14,875 nucleotides of DNA from an uncultured bacterium (GTDB taxonomy: Bacteria; CSSED10-310; CAZUFC01). A model generated the notes under the pieces. That model worked only from the letters and a program-made list of their open reading frames with translations. It was not told where the DNA came from and did not search any database. This document shows positions 6,465 to 14,069 of the stretch, piece after piece. The stretch spans positions 1 through 14,875 of the forward strand of contig CAZUFC010000174.1 of NCBI GenBank assembly GCA_964619725.1, in the 5' to 3' direction. Within the stretch, counting starts at the first letter, position 1; every line of letters starts with the position of its first letter. A program made the translations under genes and the position numbers.

Positions 6465-6582
6465 CTAAATGAATAGATATTCTGTAGAATTGTAATCCCA
6501 AAAGACGCATTTTTGATCAATGCCGACTCTTTATTCTGCCTAGTTTGTTTTTTAAGAGCAATCCCACAATATAATTCAGCGT

Positions 6583-6611
6583 TTGCAAATTTTCGTCTCT
6601 TTTTGTATAAA
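6583..6611 (+). promoter_or_regulatory. Putative sigma70-type promoter for the surface protein gene
   Basis: TTGCAA-N17-TATAAA followed by GGGAGG (6618-6623) and ATG at 6633. Confidence 0.45.
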
Positions 6612-6632
6612 AAGACTGGGAGGGCTGACGAA

Positions 6633-8822
6633 ATGTTTCATTTTGAATTAAAGAATCATTCTGTCTTTACGTTTACGTTCAAGTTCGCCGTTATTTTTTT
6701 AATGTCTGTAGTGTTTGCGGGTCATGTTCAGGCACAAAGGAGCGGGATCATCATCAATGAATTCATGTATGATGCTCCTGGGGGCGATCCTGGAAACGAA
6801 TGGATAGAAATAGTCAACACGGCCGGCGAAGCGATTGATATGACGGGATATGATTTACGTTGCGGCGAGGCTGGTTTTTATACATTTCCTGTTTTCACGC
6901 TTCAACCTGGAACGCGGGTAACGGTTCATATAGATTTGGAGGGGACAGACAGCGAGACGGATTTGTACACGGGATTCACTTCCCAGAATATGAGCAATTC
7001 TCATGATTCAGCGGTTCTTTTCAATTCAACCTCTCATACGACAGGGACGATCGTCGATTTCATTCAGTACGGCGAAGGGGGGCAATCGTGGGAGGGAACG
7101 GCGGTATCCGCGGGGATATGGACAGAAGGCGCGTATGTCGAAATAATTCCTTCCGGGAATACGCTGGGTTTATGTCCGGACGGATCGGACAATAATTCGG
7201 TGGAGGATTGGTATGAATTCGACGTTCCGACGATGGGCGGCCCAAACGATTGTCCGCAGGCGACACCGACAGCAGTTCCCAGTCCCACATCCGGTCCTGA
7301 GCCGACAGTAACGCCGGAAATTTCCGGAACGCCTGAACCAACGCCGACGCCGACTCAAACGTCGACATCCACCGGTACGCCGACGATGAGTTTCACTCCA
7401 TCGCCCCCCACGCTGACGGCTCCACCGACCCTCAGTCCAACGGCAACCGAAACCTTCGTAACGACGCCGACTCCATCCGCAACCGCAGACGTATCGCCGA
7501 CAAGTCCGCCCACTTCTCCTCCCACTCCGCCGACACAAACGCCAACGGGAAGCATTACTGCTACGCACACTCCCATCACGCCGTCGCCCACTTCGACATC
7601 AAATACGCCCTCTCCGACCCTCACGCCTGAAAACCCCACGGCCGTTCCGACCCCTACCGCGCTGAATTACGGTCCGGACATATGGGCGGCCGGATACGTC
7701 GGTTCCTATCTGGACGAATCAGCGGGCGGTTCTCTGTCCATAATGGCGGTAATCGCAGACCCGGACGGCGATCCCGTGAAAGGCGTTTCACTGTACTATG
7801 AAGGACAACCGGCCGGCGTTACGGAAGAATTCGATACTCAGGAAAGCCTGATCATATGGGAATACGGACCTCTTGATCTTCCCGCAGGTATACCCTACGG
7901 CGAATTTCTCCTGGAACTGGCCGCCTGGGATGAAAAAGGTGAAACAGGAACCCTCTGGCCTTATCTTAATTCCGGGAGTCCGGACATCTCTCCGCACTCA
8001 GCCCCCTGGTACGCCGGCGAATTCTCCTCAGGGAACCCGGAAAGCGATCCCATCATTCTTATGGCCGGTTACCGGGAGACCAGAATTGAAAACGGCGGCG
8101 GCCAGATGACGCTTATAGCCCTGGTTTCCGATCCCCAGGGCTTAAACGATGTAACGCTGGTCGAACTCTACGCCGGCGGCGCTCCCACAGGAATATTGCT
8201 TTACGATGACGGCGAAAGCGGCGACTTCGATGCCGGCGACGGCGTGTTCGGTTATGTCCTGGAATTGGAAGAAGGCGCCCTCGATGAAGGAATATACCTC
8301 CTGGAATTGGCAGTCCGGGACGCAGCAGGCCACCAAAGCGACCTCTGGCCCTACGTAACCATCCATAAAAGCGCTCCGCCCACACCCGCCTACAATACTC
8401 CCACTCCAACGCCCACTCAGCCCGATCAACCCCAAACCCCAACTCCCGTCAATACTTTCGTTCCTCCTACTCCCATTAACGAATGCATCCAGGCGGAACC
8501 GCGCTCGTTCGATTTCGGACTCGTCTGGATCAATGAATCAGGCCCCTCAGAAACCGTCTGCGTCATACAGAACAACTGCAACTACAACGTTCAACTTTCC
8601 GTCAACAACTCAAACCCCGACAACTTCCTCCTGGAACAACCCGCGGAATGCCTGGATCAATGCACCCTGCAACAAAATTCCGAACCTATGCCCATAATCA
8701 TGAAATTCACCCCTAAATCCTGCAACCTGATCACCGGCGCCCTAGAATTGACCTTCTCAGCTCCCAATCAACCCCTCCACGAAATAACAATAAGCCTTTC
8801 CGGCACGGGCCGATGCCTGTAA
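6633..8822 (+). CDS. Secreted modular surface protein: signal peptide, lamin-tail domain, Pro/Thr linker, two homologous beta domains (second with choice-of-anchor X-like loop), Pro/Thr linker, Ig-like C-terminal domain
   Basis: Start placed at ATG 6633 (RBS, promoter, hydrophobic signal ending VQA) rather than TTG 6513. IIINEFMYD...NEWIEIVN...IDMTGYDL is the lamin-tail signature. LYDDGESGDFDAGDGVF acidic loop. C-terminal PRSFDFG...IQN...FTP...GALELT...ISLSGTG resembles ASH/choice-of-anchor D Ig folds. Confidence 0.85.
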   Translation: MFHFELKNHSVFTFTFKFAVIFLMSVVFAGHVQAQRSGIIINEFMYDAPGGDPGNEWIEIVNTAGEAIDMTGYDLRCGEAGFYTFPVFTLQPGTRVTVHIDLEGTDSETDLYTGFTSQNMSNSHDSAVLFNSTSHTTGTIVDFIQYGEGGQSWEGTAVSAGIWTEGAYVEIIPSGNTLGLCPDGSDNNSVEDWYEFDVPTMGGPNDCPQATPTAVPSPTSGPEPTVTPEISGTPEPTPTPTQTSTSTGTPTMSFTPSPPTLTAPPTLSPTATETFVTTPTPSATADVSPTSPPTSPPTPPTQTPTGSITATHTPITPSPTSTSNTPSPTLTPENPTAVPTPTALNYGPDIWAAGYVGSYLDESAGGSLSIMAVIADPDGDPVKGVSLYYEGQPAGVTEEFDTQESLIIWEYGPLDLPAGIPYGEFLLELAAWDEKGETGTLWPYLNSGSPDISPHSAPWYAGEFSSGNPESDPIILMAGYRETRIENGGGQMTLIALVSDPQGLNDVTLVELYAGGAPTGILLYDDGESGDFDAGDGVFGYVLELEEGALDEGIYLLELAVRDAAGHQSDLWPYVTIHKSAPPTPAYNTPTPTPTQPDQPQTPTPVNTFVPPTPINECIQAEPRSFDFGLVWINESGPSETVCVIQNNCNYNVQLSVNNSNPDNFLLEQPAECLDQCTLQQNSEPMPIIMKFTPKSCNLITGALELTFSAPNQPLHEITISLSGTGRCL

Positions 8823-8942: not shown

Positions 8943-11210
8943 TCAGGCGTGGCAGAGGAAGAAGTTGCTTATGCCTTTAATGGATTTGAACCCTCCTGCA
9001 ATTTCATTCAAATCCAGGTCGCTGGATACTTCCATTTCCACTATGCCTTTTAACGTGTAGGCTCCGGTTCTTTCGTAGTTGGATTTTAAGATGCGGATTC
9101 CTTTTCTGCTTAAGTTATTATGAATATCGATCAAAGGCATGCCCTTGTCACGGGCTTTATATTTCATTATTACTTTTCTGTACTTGATGTTGTCTTTCCA
9201 TTCAGCGTTCACGATATTCCGAAAATTCATAATCCGGTAAGGTTTTATGTTGGAGCATTCCACGCGGTGAACGGATAATCCTCTGTCCCGAAGGGACAAC
9301 CCGACAATTTCGTCTCCGAATTTGGGCATGCAGCAGCCCGGGATTTGAATCGGCATGGGAAAGGGTATGTTTTTCAGTTTGAACTCATCCGAGGGCGGAA
9401 AGGTTTTCTGGACCTGGTTTTCCAGCATTTCAGCGAAGAATTCCATGGTCAGTTTATCTTCCTGATCCAAAATTTCATATCTTTCCCAGAATGCATCGGA
9501 AAAGATCGATTCCATGCTGGAGAAAGCTTTTTTGAAGTCTTCAAATTCCTGACAATTCATCAGGGGAATAAGCCTGGGGATAACATAAGCGTAATAAATC
9601 CTTCCGTAATGGTAATCTTTGAAGAACGCCTTCAGATCGTCATAGCCGCAGGATTTGGCTAACCTGAGCCATCGGGGATGATTGAAATCGCATCTTACCT
9701 TGAATTTTTTCAGGAACTTACGTAGATTTCCCTTCCCCATCTCATGCGCTATACCATCCTGACGTCTCAATTCCCGTTTAATGGCCACCTTGGAGCGCTC
9801 CGTCCGGATAAAGTTCAGCCAGTTGACCTGGGGCGAAAGGTTTTCATCAGAAATAATTTCAACCGTCATACCGCTTTTTAATTGTCGGCTCAGTTTATTT
9901 CTTACGCCGTCTATAAGTCCGTTTTCCGCCGTGTTTCCCAGTTCCGTATGAATGTGATACGCCAGGTCCAGAACCGTGCTTCCTTCCGGCAGTTTAATAT
10001 GATCGCCCCTGGGCGTATAAACGTCGATTTCCTGGAACTGGACTTTCTTTGTGAGATCGAACAACTCGTCGCTTGATATATCATCAAAGGATTCGACGAT
10101 TTCCTTAAGCCAGGTGAGGTCTCTTCCGCGTCCGTCGTTTAATGCGGCGATAAGACCCAATTCATCTTCCATCGCCATTTTTAACGTGCGGATCAATATT
10201 TGAACTTTTCTACCTTCGTGAATCACCACCGTATGAAAGGACCTGTAATTATTGATTTTAGGATTATGGATGAAGTCGCGCATCCTCAAGGGCAGATGAT
10301 CGAACAAATTATGGATCACTCCCAGCGCCACGTAGCAATCATCGATTGTCTTAACGCATATTTCCAGATTGAAACTCTCAATTTTGTCGACTTCATCAAA
10401 CCTCCGGTTCTCACGCTTCAATATCTTATAAGTCTCAAATATAGGTTTTGAGAAAAACCTTACTCTCGACCATATGCTGTGCCGTTTCAGCTCATCTTCG
10501 ATTTTGCCCCGCATAGCCTCAAAATTCGACCAGTTCGTCCTGAGGCTCCTGGCCATTATACCCTGCAATTTCCGGAATTTGTTCGGATGTACATACTGAA
10601 AGGCCCAGTCTTCCATTTTACGGGCTATGACGAACAAACCCAGACGATCGGCCAGCGGAATGTAAAAAGAAGACGTTTCCCAGGCTATCCGGCGCTGCTT
10701 TTCCTCCCGAAAAACCGACAGCGATTGAATATTGTGATAACGGTCAAATATCTTGATCGGCAATATCTTTATGTCGCCCTTCATTGCATAGGACAAAATC
10801 TTTTTGATGGTTGCCGATTTTTCCTGCTTGAAAGTTTTCTTCGCTTCTTTTCCCAGTTTCGTCAACCCGTTAATAATTTCCCGGACATCCACGTTGAATT
10901 CCTTTTCAATAGTATCCAGGCTTATTCCAGCATCTTCAACCGTGTCATGAAGCAGTGCGCAAGCGATAGAAACAGCATCCATTTGATATGAAGCGCACGT
11001 TTTGGCCACTTCTATGGGGTGATGAATATAGGGCTTCCCATCCCGACGGAATTCTCCGCCATGAGCATCTAAAGCGAAATAAAAGGCTTTCGATATGAAA
11101 TGTTCATTATTGGCGTTGCGGTCGTGAAAAATGGAATGTAATTCCTCAATTTCTCTCAACCTTAATTCCAGTTCATCATTTATCAAGGTTTTTTCGGTAT
11201 TCAATTCCAT
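8943..11210 (-). CDS. Long RelA/SpoT homologue (HD hydrolase, degenerate synthetase, TGS, Zn-finger, ACT-like)
   Basis: AHGGEFRRDGKPYIHHP, LLHDTVED, IKIFDRYHN, PLADRLG. TGS VYTPRGDHIKLPEGSTVLDLAYHIHTELG. Zn-finger CCMPKFGDEIVG...VHRVECSN. GGGAGGG RBS at 11221-11227 (minus). Confidence 0.95.
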   Translation of the reverse strand: MELNTEKTLINDELELRLREIEELHSIFHDRNANNEHFISKAFYFALDAHGGEFRRDGKPYIHHPIEVAKTCASYQMDAVSIACALLHDTVEDAGISLDTIEKEFNVDVREIINGLTKLGKEAKKTFKQEKSATIKKILSYAMKGDIKILPIKIFDRYHNIQSLSVFREEKQRRIAWETSSFYIPLADRLGLFVIARKMEDWAFQYVHPNKFRKLQGIMARSLRTNWSNFEAMRGKIEDELKRHSIWSRVRFFSKPIFETYKILKRENRRFDEVDKIESFNLEICVKTIDDCYVALGVIHNLFDHLPLRMRDFIHNPKINNYRSFHTVVIHEGRKVQILIRTLKMAMEDELGLIAALNDGRGRDLTWLKEIVESFDDISSDELFDLTKKVQFQEIDVYTPRGDHIKLPEGSTVLDLAYHIHTELGNTAENGLIDGVRNKLSRQLKSGMTVEIISDENLSPQVNWLNFIRTERSKVAIKRELRRQDGIAHEMGKGNLRKFLKKFKVRCDFNHPRWLRLAKSCGYDDLKAFFKDYHYGRIYYAYVIPRLIPLMNCQEFEDFKKAFSSMESIFSDAFWERYEILDQEDKLTMEFFAEMLENQVQKTFPPSDEFKLKNIPFPMPIQIPGCCMPKFGDEIVGLSLRDRGLSVHRVECSNIKPYRIMNFRNIVNAEWKDNIKYRKVIMKYKARDKGMPLIDIHNNLSRKGIRILKSNYERTGAYTLKGIVEMEVSSDLDLNEIAGGFKSIKGISNFFLCHA

Positions 11211-11442
11211 CGTTCCACATCCCTCCCAAATAAAATTATAATTCCTGCGGGCATGCTATGCAAGCCCCCGAAAAATTTCATCATCCGGTTCCGACATCTG
11301 GTGTTCTATCCTTTCGATCGAGTCTCGGTAATGCTGCTTGAAAATCCGTTCGAGATTCTTTAGAATCCTTACTGAGCTTTATTTCTGAACTTTCTGAACC
11401 TGTGAATAGTTCCACTGGGCGAAGCCGGACAGGGAGGAGAAC

Positions 11443-12206: not shown

Positions 12207-14069
12207 TCAGCCGGAAGATTCGTCAATTTCGAGATAATCTATGGTCAGAGAGCTTTGGGCGTTATAGACAATCTGCAAGGAAAAAAGCCCTTTTTTCTGC
12301 GTCCCGAAAGTTACTTCAACAAGTTGAAAATCATGCTGATATTCTCTGTTCAAAGTGATTTCTCGGTTTATAAAGATAATTTTTCTGGAAGGATCACGAA
12401 CGATTCTAAGTTCCAGGTCGGGTCCGGAGCTTATCTTGTCTTCTGCCGCAACTCTTATTTTGAGGAGATAATCCCCTTTTTCCAGATGAAAATAGGGAGT
12501 TTTCGACAGAACACCCTCATTATGAATACGTGTATCGGTCTTTCTGACGATGCCGTAGGAAGAGCGTTCATCCCTCTGATAAACTCCCGTATTATAGTAA
12601 GTTCGAGCGGCGTAGAATCTGTGGGGAAATGCCGGCGGCCTGTATTGCAGGCCGGCGAGAATCTGCATATCGCTCCACCGCCAAAGTCGCTCCGGGAAAG
12701 CATCGATAGGGGGATAGGAATTCCATTCCTGTGAAGCTGTGGAATAGACGCCTATTGCCTGAACCGCTATGGAAGCGATCATGAGGGCGCCCGGGAGTAT
12801 GACCTTCAAGTTTATTTTTCTGTATTTTCGAAGAACAGGAACGGTTAAAAGGGTCAGGAAGCCCAGAATATCGCAATTCAGCCGCGGACCGTAGGAATGT
12901 CCTCCCCACCAGTGTGAAAACTTCGATATAACGGCAAGATGCAATATGACGGCAACACTGCACATGATGAAAAAACAGCTCCTTTTTCTGAAAGCCTCAA
13001 TCATTCCGGCGACCGAGAAAAAAAACATGGGCGTGAAGACGAAGAGTCCTCTGTTAGGACTAAAAAGATTGCCCAACAGGGCTTTAGACCAGGAACCCGA
13101 CCAGCGGTCCATATCGACGTTAAGCCTGTATCCGCCTAGGATGTGGTCAAAGTAATAAAGATTGAAACTGACGAAAAATGCTGCAGGCGCAACGGCCCCT
13201 GCCAGAAAAAGCAAAACGGCTTTCCCGCGTCGCGTTCTGAATAGCATGCAAATAAATATAACGGCAGCTCCGATAAGCGCAGTAGGCCGACACGCAAAGG
13301 CGGCTCCGGCAAATAATCCGCTGAAAAATATCGATCTGAGCTTAAGGTTGAGATCATCCGTTGATCTTAACAGAAAAAGAAGGGATGCATTAAGGCATAA
13401 AAGAACAGGTCCGTGCTGCCAGGGAGCCTGACTGCAGGAACTCCACGCGGAAGTTCCAAAGGCATAGAACATAGTAAGACTCAAAGTCCATTTCCAGGAT
13501 AGAAAACGCCGCAGTATCAGGAAAAGCAGCACGGCCGACAATGCCGTTATGACTGAAGCCGTCGCCTTTCCCTGCCTGAGGAAATATTCCGGCTGCAGTC
13601 CTGCGCCGAACAGCCTGGCCGTCAGATGAACCGGTATTCCGAACAGCGCCGGAGCCGCCGGAAATACTGACAAAAAACGCCCCCTGATCTGATAGGCCCC
13701 ACCAAATTTCATATGTCCCCGGAATTCGGACAAATCTGCGGTTCCGTCACGTAAAAGCGTCGCCGGCAGATATCGGGCGCCGAATGTATCAGGAGGTTCC
13801 GGCATCCATGCGCTGCTGAGATAAACCGACACAATCGCCGGCATCAAAAGAAACATAATGTCCCCAAAGCCCCATCTCCCCCGGGGTTTCAGCCATAAAC
13901 GCAAGATGCTTAACGTTCCCAGCACCGTCAAAGGGATAATGTAACGGTGAAGACTGAAACTGATGAATACTGCATGAACTTCCAGCCCCTTAGCCAAATA
14001 TGCTGAAAAGATCAGCAATCCCATCGCCGCTATCAAAACGTCAAGAAGTATTCTGAACTGTCGCTTCAT
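12207..14069 (-). CDS. Polytopic membrane protein, probable GT-C fold glycosyltransferase with C-terminal soluble beta domain
   Basis: About 12-13 hydrophobic segments, Asp in the first large loop (PPDT), motifs YAFGTSAWS..SQAPWQH, CRPT, LFSPNRGLF, WWGGHSYGPR. Hydrophilic C-terminus with PYFHLEKGDYLLKIRV. The family assignment is by resemblance. Confidence 0.7.
   Translation of the reverse strand: MKRQFRILLDVLIAAMGLLIFSAYLAKGLEVHAVFISFSLHRYIIPLTVLGTLSILRLWLKPRGRWGFGDIMFLLMPAIVSVYLSSAWMPEPPDTFGARYLPATLLRDGTADLSEFRGHMKFGGAYQIRGRFLSVFPAAPALFGIPVHLTARLFGAGLQPEYFLRQGKATASVITALSAVLLFLILRRFLSWKWTLSLTMFYAFGTSAWSSCSQAPWQHGPVLLCLNASLLFLLRSTDDLNLKLRSIFFSGLFAGAAFACRPTALIGAAVIFICMLFRTRRGKAVLLFLAGAVAPAAFFVSFNLYYFDHILGGYRLNVDMDRWSGSWSKALLGNLFSPNRGLFVFTPMFFFSVAGMIEAFRKRSCFFIMCSVAVILHLAVISKFSHWWGGHSYGPRLNCDILGFLTLLTVPVLRKYRKINLKVILPGALMIASIAVQAIGVYSTASQEWNSYPPIDAFPERLWRWSDMQILAGLQYRPPAFPHRFYAARTYYNTGVYQRDERSSYGIVRKTDTRIHNEGVLSKTPYFHLEKGDYLLKIRVAAEDKISSGPDLELRIVRDPSRKIIFINREITLNREYQHDFQLVEVTFGTQKKGLFSLQIVYNAQSSLTIDYLEIDESSG

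Follow-up and report, generated by a model that had tools for sequence, protein, structure and literature searches.

A long RelA/SpoT homologue (RSH) that keeps one of its two active sites and has lost the other raises three questions: what it still does to (p)ppGpp, which proteins do the opposite work, and where it came from. Such a gene lies on the minus strand at positions 8943..11210 of the window, by which we mean the whole 14,875-nucleotide stretch analysed here (assembly GCA_964619725.1, contig CAZUFC010000174.1), from an uncultured bacterium of the phylum CSSED10-310. A sequence-only reading had proposed a dead synthetase with an intact hydrolase. We hold with good confidence, on the residues kept and lost, that the 755-residue product is a hydrolase-only long RSH, carrying out hydrolysis beside synthetase partners.

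Active sites of the 755-residue protein

The gene and its parts, all on the minus strand, are as follows.
8943..11210 (minus): long RSH gene (P0001), complete, 755 residues, with HD, pseudo-synthetase, Core, TGS, helical, Zn-finger and ACT/RRM domains
11221..11227 (minus): GGGAGGG, a ribosome-binding-like site 10 nucleotides before the ATG, read from the sequence
10635..11087 (minus): HD (p)ppGpp hydrolase domain, residues 42-192, Pfam HD_4 108 bits, scored catalytic and metal residues all kept
10341..10481 (minus): ATP/Mg side of the pseudo-synthetase, residues 244-290, with a 2-residue insertion and F253, E259, I263, K276 and E283 in place of Arg, Ser, Lys, Asp and Arg
10233..10277 (minus): guanine-side motif of the pseudo-synthetase, D312-H326 (K318, N320, Y322, H326), retained
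10188..10202 (minus): catalytic ExQxR site, now Q337-I-L339-I-R341
10032..10136 (minus): shortened Core or linker with the WxYK stretch deleted, 59 residues long (bifunctional Rel: 69-70; A. baumannii SpoT: 63)
9846..10031 (minus): TGS domain, Pfam TGS 58 bits, with H421 (codon 9948-9950) as the equivalent of E. coli RelA H432
9402..9845 (minus): helical domain with a clade-specific insert of ~30 residues before the Zn finger, predicted to be helical (linker ~89 versus 59 residues)
9195..9353 (minus): Zn-finger domain with C626, C627, H648 and C652, invariant in 14/14 clade rows
8946..9185 (minus): ACT/RRM domain, residues 676-755, with ACT-fold structural matches at Z 12-13 and root mean square deviation (rmsd) 1.5-2.2 over ~80 residues

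The HD, synthetase (SYNTH), TGS, helical, Zn-finger and ACT domains all lie in one chain, and the protein is a member of the long RSH superfamily. The region singled out by the sequence-only reading (10130..10470) falls within the synthetase domain, at 10137-10481 of the window. We scored 7 hydrolase and 14 synthetase positions in each aligned row, with RelSeq-style labels. The 755-residue protein scores 7/7 for HD and 4/14 for SYNTH; 305 of the 393 aligned rows score 7/7 and 14/14. The hydrolase residue set of a long RSH (R, Y, H, HD, ED, K, D, R, N) is complete, with R55, Y61, H64, H88, D89, E92, D93, K153, D156, R157 and N160 all kept. In the synthetase, Arg is replaced by F253, Ser by E259, Lys by I263, a further Arg by E283, the catalytic Glu by Q337, Gln by L339 and His by A356, and K255, Y322, H326 and R341 are kept. 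Excerpts of PMC9974481 name the hydrolase-site residues R45, Y51, H54, H78, E82, D83, K140, R144 and N147, and the T. thermophilus equivalents R249, D272, R277, Y329 and Q347.

The register comes from phmmer alignments to 6yxa (B. subtilis Rel), 7oiw (S. aureus Rel) and 5iqr (E. coli RelA), which all agree and which keep the register of the sequence-only reading. The losses it had listed by eye (Arg to Phe, Ser to Glu, Lys to Ile, Arg to Glu, Glu to Gln and Gln to Leu) are borne out, as are the kept TGS His and CCHC finger. The residues that mark a bifunctional Rel[HS], namely the catalytic Asp, Glu and Gln together with the Arg/Lys residues that bind ATP, are not found as a set in this protein, in which the register at the Asp is ambiguous. 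K276 occupies the catalytic Asp column beside the 2-residue insertion, and D275 stands one position earlier. Because D275 adjoins K276 across the insertion, "out of register or lost" was the right wording for this Asp. Judged by these residues, the synthetase domain is very probably catalytically dead, and the hydrolase is very likely active.

Family models and the predicted fold were examined alongside the residues. The Pfam RelA_SpoT score is 57 bits versus ~130-160 for intact Rels, and NCBIfam TIGR00691 spans residues 42-747 with 465 bits, under its cut-off of 499, which fits a decayed SYNTH domain. An AlphaFold model from a 14-row alignment has a mean predicted local distance difference test score of 85.2 and a predicted template modelling score (pTM) of 0.58. 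Its N-terminal half lies on S. aureus Rel with Z 36.3 and rmsd 1.7 over 322 residues, and its fold matches extend over that half and the ACT domain. Bifunctional Rel[HS] proteins (6YXA, 7OIW and RelSeq 1VJ7) have the same fold and domain order at ~30% identity (N-terminal rmsd 1.7-2.6). However, the 755-residue protein has lost 10 of the 14 synthetase residues, and its Core is 10 residues shorter.

With a word-based search we obtained five close relatives (32-38% identity), and a profile search of 1.84 billion representatives found eight more. Together these 14 proteins form one clade (FastTree support 0.996; approximate likelihood ratio test (aLRT) 99 for 10 of them, with the synthetase columns removed). 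A region search with P0006 added 23 clade members at 158 bits or more, the next matches reaching 82 bits at most. When genome and metagenome contigs were scanned with patterns from the clade alignments, no clade member stood among the 80 loci listed in each scan, and an atlas search gave generic RelA/SpoT clusters alone. One clade cluster includes a fragment labelled Myxococcota, and the hydrolase-only clade is therefore probably not confined to the host phylum.

HD scores 7/7 in 36 of the 37 clade proteins. The catalytic Glu and Gln are present in none of the 37 and the first Arg in one, and the ATP-side positions vary freely from member to member. The Core has a median length of 59 residues in the clade versus 69 in 332 bifunctional rows. 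Across these alignments the synthetase loss is conserved among relatives and is not the decay of one strain, of which the sequence-only reading had named intact motifs in close orthologues as the sign.

Could the protein be a divergent Rel that remains weakly bifunctional, with D275 and another acidic residue doing the catalysis? D275 with a neighbouring acidic residue is common in the clade, K255, Y322, H326 and R341 are kept, and the fold is intact. However, Glu and Gln are gone from every clade protein and the first Arg from all but one, the ATP side is free to vary, and the genome encodes two intact synthetases. We regard this alternative as very unlikely. A decaying pseudogene or an assembly artefact is more improbable still. 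The branch of the 755-residue protein is long (1.05-1.14 changes per site), and no relative exceeds 38% identity. Against this, the 755-residue frame is intact and has a ribosome-binding site, the loss is limited to one active site and is common to 37 relatives, and contigs of a second sample agree. Those contigs cover 10111-10943 with zero differing letters (all four runs belong to one study), and the gene is not an assembly error.

A Phe before the hydrolase Asp-Arg (KxFDR) occurs in most hydrolase-only groups, but in just 6 of 335 bifunctional rows; it may be a marker or a convergent change.

Synthetase partners in the genome and in other phyla

The genome bin (9.17 Mb, 90.9% complete) gave three synthetase-domain matches and four HD matches. 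Beside the 755-residue protein, its RSH genes are as follows.
C9:2290-4467: long RSH of 725 residues, SYNTH 14/14 and HD 3/7
C23:66327-67733: RSH of 468 residues that ends soon after TGS, SYNTH 14/14 and HD 1/7
C47: small hydrolase of 213 residues

The prediction of a separate synthetase elsewhere in the genome thus came true twice, on C9 and on C23, and the genome showed no further long RSH whose hydrolase is intact. The four RSH contigs are typical of the bin (tetranucleotide rank 11-154 of 211). The C23 protein is the native secF-linked Rel, hydrolase-dead and without Zn finger or ACT; the ~820 bp downstream hold no long open reading frame and no remnant of the missing domains. The C9 protein has a 4-residue insertion after TGS that is common to Chloroflexota Rel and E. 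coli RelA, and it groups with them (ultrafast bootstrap 99). Because of this insertion and this grouping, the C9 synthetase was probably gained by transfer.

The insertion itself occurs in 10 of 335 bifunctional rows. With HD columns left out, two synthetase-only proteins of the host phylum that have it fall together with E. coli RelA and Chloroflexota Rel at bootstrap 99, and RelA may stand nearer to Chloroflexota Rel than to SpoT. On C9, some 2 kb away from the synthetase-only RSH, a gene (G000:C9:6317-10474) encodes a 1385-residue protein that by eye resembles Rhs/YD-repeat proteins.

The same split runs through the host phylum. A hydrolase-intact, synthetase-dead long RSH is present in 12 of 14 phylum genomes, a hydrolase-broken synthetase in 13 and both together in 11, although these counts are not independent events because the genomes are kin. 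One genome (G011) is 60% complete, and the copies of another (G013) are partial. The secF-linked Rel locus reads queA-tgt-yajC-secD-secF, followed in most genomes by pilMNOPQ. The locus was seen in 10 genomes; in 9 of them its Rel is hydrolase-broken, and in G004 alone it is intact. No hydrolase-only long RSH was found in G004 (93% complete). The mildest synthetase case (hydrolase 5/7) is in G001, which also has the most divergent hydrolase-type copy. Purifying selection acts on the hydrolase-type genes in two same-genus pairs, with ratios of nonsynonymous to synonymous substitution rates (dN/dS) of 0.03 and 0.13. In these pairs, dN/dS is 0.10 and 0.21 in the ATP half and 0.026 and 0.041 in the guanine half.

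Other RSH arrangements were also seen. At L042:1739-11490 and seven similar loci (families f4, f6 and f7), the hydrolase-type gene stands in a conserved run of Na-translocating pyrophosphatase, GT4 glycosyltransferase, RSH, inositol monophosphatase and membrane glycosyltransferase. RSH-derived proteins of 1115-1203 residues with degenerate synthetase motifs and extra domains are found at L047:3985-7434 (G012), L151 and L152, and the hydrolase motifs are also gone in those of L047 and L152. In G001 (L050:3511-5028), a split RSH consists of adjacent frames, one HD-only (211 residues) and one with a synthetase domain (293 residues).

The pair also occurs outside the host phylum. In a second phylum, that of G118, 39 of 40 genomes have a weak synthetase-domain match in a long frame. 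Among the copies fetched from it, 11/11 weak copies are hydrolase-intact and synthetase-dead, and 11/11 strong copies have broken or eroded hydrolase motifs; its family f78 has short forms of ~460-540 residues. All three Chloroflexota genomes with a hydrolase-type copy also have an eroded-hydrolase partner, but these three genes were probably picked through the KxFDR pattern, which is a selection bias. In a sample of 191 genomes, at least two matches were found in 22 of the 182 genomes outside the host phylum. Among 19 of these examined, the pair is present in G118 and G182, probably in G180, whose weak copy is cut at a contig end, and partly in G144. There, a hydrolase-dead synthetase stands beside a hydrolase-intact copy with a partly eroded synthetase, possibly an intermediate stage; two matches occur in 5 of 6 genomes of its phylum (L233, L238). 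No weak long copy was found in two control phyla (12/12 and 25/25 genomes). All these counts are lower bounds, because the Pfam model can miss very dead domains. The hydrolase-only/synthetase-only pair is still uncommon overall. However, the rarity that the sequence-only reading implied was overstated: the same pattern fills the second phylum, occurs in Chloroflexota and is visible in alignments of the named subfamilies RshC, RshD and RshD2.

Since the residues that make (p)ppGpp are lost, those that destroy it are kept and the sister genes show the opposite, the protein is probably an off-switch. We propose that the intact HD site would take the 3'-pyrophosphate off (p)ppGpp with Mn2+, and that the broken synthetase domain likely serves as a regulatory scaffold. 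The partners, mainly the full-length C9 protein, would make (p)ppGpp on starved ribosomes, and the 755-residue protein would set its decay rate, like SpoT beside RelA. The C-terminal domains may pack round the shortened Core and keep the HD site active, as the short Core and the A. baumannii precedent suggest. In A. baumannii SpoT, which has a comparable loss of synthetase residues and is hydrolase-active and synthetase-inactive, the C-terminal domains and Core activate hydrolysis, according to excerpts of PMC9974481. The hydrolase-only gene would stem from an old lineage outside SpoT, and once it was present, the native secF-linked Rel would have been free to lose hydrolysis in most of the phylum.

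Origin, and relation to known long RSHs

Complete (p)ppGpp subfunctionalisation has been placed in Moraxellaceae (excerpts of PMC3153485 and PMC9974481). SpoT[Hs] of this family (A. baumannii SpoT, PDB 7QPR; Tamman et al., PMC9974481) has the same full domain set, with an intact HD and a broken synthetase, and a similarly short Core (63 residues, versus 59 in the 755-residue protein). Both co-occur with a hydrolase-dead, synthetase-only long RSH. However, the 755-residue protein keeps the guanine-side K/N/Y/H (Y322) and the TGS His (H421), both lost in A. baumannii. It also has the ~30-residue helical insert and no rpoZ neighbour.

We asked whether the gene is a transferred proteobacterial SpoT that decayed further, in the same family as Acinetobacter SpoT[Hs]. 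Trees were built with the synthetase columns removed, and supports are SH-aLRT values (the Shimodaira-Hasegawa-like form of the test) from short searches unless stated. No free tree places the clade inside SpoT; A. baumannii SpoT remains inside it (aLRT 99.3) and is not drawn to the clade. Forcing the clade with SpoT was rejected by the approximately unbiased test in a 36-row set (p 0.021). It was also rejected in a 26-row set (p 0.031; 0.022 with A. baumannii SpoT alone), in which the free tree converged over four seeds. The SpoT equivalog model gives 307 bits against a cut-off of 947 (RelA equivalog: 237 against 728), and rpoZ is not among the gene's neighbours within the window, unlike the case of E. 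coli and A. baumannii spoT. In favour of a transferred SpoT, two trees put the hydrolase-type cluster sister to alphaproteobacterial Rel and SpoT (aLRT 97.4 and 95.5), 7qpr is the top Foldseek match by E-value, and a 63-row set does not reject it. On balance a transferred SpoT is unlikely and an origin outside SpoT is probable. The independent origin that the earlier reading had inferred, apart from Moraxellaceae SpoT, is supported as well, if more weakly in the 63-row set. The 755-residue protein probably works like SpoT[Hs] but belongs to a separate hydrolase-only lineage.

The position of that lineage among Rels is less clear. The tests disagree on an origin by duplication of the secF-linked Rel native to the phylum, with p 0.28 in the 36-row set, 0.003 in the 26-row set and 1e-7 in the unconverged 63-row set. 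In the best trees, the non-Acinetobacter hydrolase-type groups form one cluster (aLRT 83-95). Long-branch attraction is possible there, because the Chloroflexota hydrolase-type copies carry the 4-residue insertion of Chloroflexota Rel, and grouping them with Chloroflexota Rel was not rejected (p 0.29).

Close known families also include RshD and RshD2, long RSHs that deltaproteobacteria carry as a second copy (Atkinson 2011, PMC3153485; Jimmy 2020, PMC7229694, both in excerpt). Excerpts of the latter list 13 long-RSH subfamilies and label RshD and RshD2 [HS]. By eye, however, the RshC, RshD and RshD2 rows seen in its supplementary alignment have lost the synthetase motifs and kept the hydrolase motifs. 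RshD and RshD2 are always listed beside a Rel in these excerpts, as the 755-residue protein, itself a second, divergent copy, stands beside other long RSHs. In the same rows, again by eye, RshD shares with the clade the guanine-side motif, Lys-Gly following the conserved Lys, and Arg in place of the Trp of KWELED, and RshD2 shares an aromatic residue before the HD Asp-Arg. However, RshD reads KLADR where the clade reads KIFDR, and little of the guanine-side motif is left in RshD2. On this comparison of motifs by eye the clade is possibly RshD-related; named RshD proteins were not among the matches of our relative searches. The phyla of five dsrA-positive genomes and that of G144 held nothing recognisable as Desulfobacterota, nor did the plasmid rows listed (40 of 182 and 60 of 97). 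The L2 of the host gave named matches to CSSED10-310 and to deltaproteobacteria at similar identity (~70% for many taxa); of its first four matches with a taxon name, three are CSSED10-310, which makes that phylum name likely. In the same supplement (sd05), the Rel row of Syntrophobacter fumaroxidans has an Asp at the hydrolase Asn position.

RshC of Bacilli likewise keeps HD intact beside a dead synthetase in the four rows inspected. However, it is truncated in the helical domain (PMC3153485, in excerpt) and has no guanine-side motif, whereas the 755-residue protein is full length, keeps this motif and has both Zn finger and ACT; the helical-domain truncation and Bacillus host of RshC do not apply to it. 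A full-text search, with most subscription journals outside its reach, found no functional paper on RshC or RshD, no statement that the RshD synthetase is dead, and no description of a hydrolase-only long RSH outside Moraxellaceae. The E. coli pair of RelA[hS] and SpoT[HS] likewise splits synthesis and hydrolysis over paralogues, and G004 is in the same hS and HS state. The difference is that the hydrolase partner here is fully synthetase-dead and that the ancestral secF-linked Rel lost hydrolysis.

Several results weigh against a separate hydrolase-only lineage with a needed off-switch role. The 63-row set did not reject a forced union of the clade with SpoT (p 0.065, or 0.114 when A. baumannii supplied the only SpoT), although this set is poorly converged, because its constrained tree beat its free tree by 44 log units. 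Grouping with all proteobacterial Rel and SpoT was not rejected either (p 0.106). An Asp adjoins the catalytic position in 9 of 14 clade rows. Given the small hydrolase on C47, logic alone does not require the 755-residue protein, and in G005 (94% complete) a hydrolase-broken Rel is accompanied by just a small hydrolase. The contrast with G004 rests on one genome that is 93% complete, the dN/dS pairs are sister groups and not the 755-residue gene itself, and the bin has 6.5% contamination. Finally, against full-length A. baumannii SpoT 7qpr, a test of the compact tau conformation, the model (pTM 0.58) has an rmsd of 15-25 (about 24). Because the model does not give this compact conformation, the proposed domain packing rests on analogy.

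The gene is solitary in the window, with a divergent peptidase M50 gene and a convergent gene for a lamin-tail-domain protein, and none of its neighbours recurs at the other hydrolase-type loci of the phylum. Scans for promoters and terminators did no better than chance. The lamin-tail-domain protein (window 6513-8822, 769 residues) has Thr-Pro linkers and a choice-of-anchor X motif, and window 12207-14069 encodes a 620-residue membrane glycosyltransferase-like protein without a Pfam match.

The dead domain as a possible sensor, and the division of labour

The pseudo-synthetase has not decayed evenly, and this bears on whether the hydrolase is also a sensor. In addition to hydrolysis, the dead domain might bind GDP/GTP or ppGpp, the TGS His might read uncharged tRNA, or both, and such inputs would turn hydrolysis on or off. 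The guanine-side Tyr and His are kept in all 37 clade proteins and in 27 of the 28 hydrolase-type rows scored. Mean identity in the clade is 0.49 in the guanine half versus 0.26 in the ATP half, and the dN/dS values of the two halves point the same way. The TGS His is kept in 14/14 clade rows, in 22/22 further clade rows that include TGS, and in 11/11 rows of the second phylum. A. baumannii SpoT has lost both features, as our alignment also shows; it binds no GDP without the guanine-stacking Tyr and ignores ribosomes without the TGS His (PMC9974481, in excerpt). However, the guanine half is also the better conserved half in 25 bifunctional controls (0.62 versus 0.44), and the signal may be partly structural because bifunctional Rels show the same bias. 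The site has lost its flanking Arg, Gln and His, and the hydrolase-type row of G182 has lost both guanine-side features and the TGS His. E. coli SpoT also has the TGS His and is described, in the same excerpts, as not controlled by starved ribosomes. We therefore treat a sensor role as a real possibility, though one with the odds somewhat against it.

A broader history is more tentative still. An old hydrolase-only long RSH lineage apart from SpoT, probably including RshD and RshD2, might extend over several phyla. Wherever it settled, the resident Rel would have lost its hydrolase and the RelA/SpoT split would have been repeated, with the dead site reading a guanine nucleotide and TGS reading tRNA.

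These observations bear on how RSH proteins are read from genomes. Annotation by domain presence miscalls their function, and such proteins are named "bifunctional" or "GTP pyrophosphokinase" in databases. In the two phyla described here, two long RSHs usually divide synthesis and hydrolysis between them; this separation is found also in Chloroflexota and is latent in families catalogued as bifunctional. So far this division of labour has been tested only in Acinetobacter. The host phylum holds its states side by side, namely HS with hS (G004), hS with Hs (11 genomes) and hS with a small hydrolase (G005). Because one phylum holds these intermediate states together, the order of subfunctionalisation is testable. 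The kept guanine-side motif and TGS His also allow a direct test of whether a pseudo-synthetase can sense nucleotides, a question that the Acinetobacter enzyme could not settle. If the sensor role is true, hydrolases that read guanine nucleotides or tRNA would be a ribosome- or GTP-gated off-switch for (p)ppGpp.

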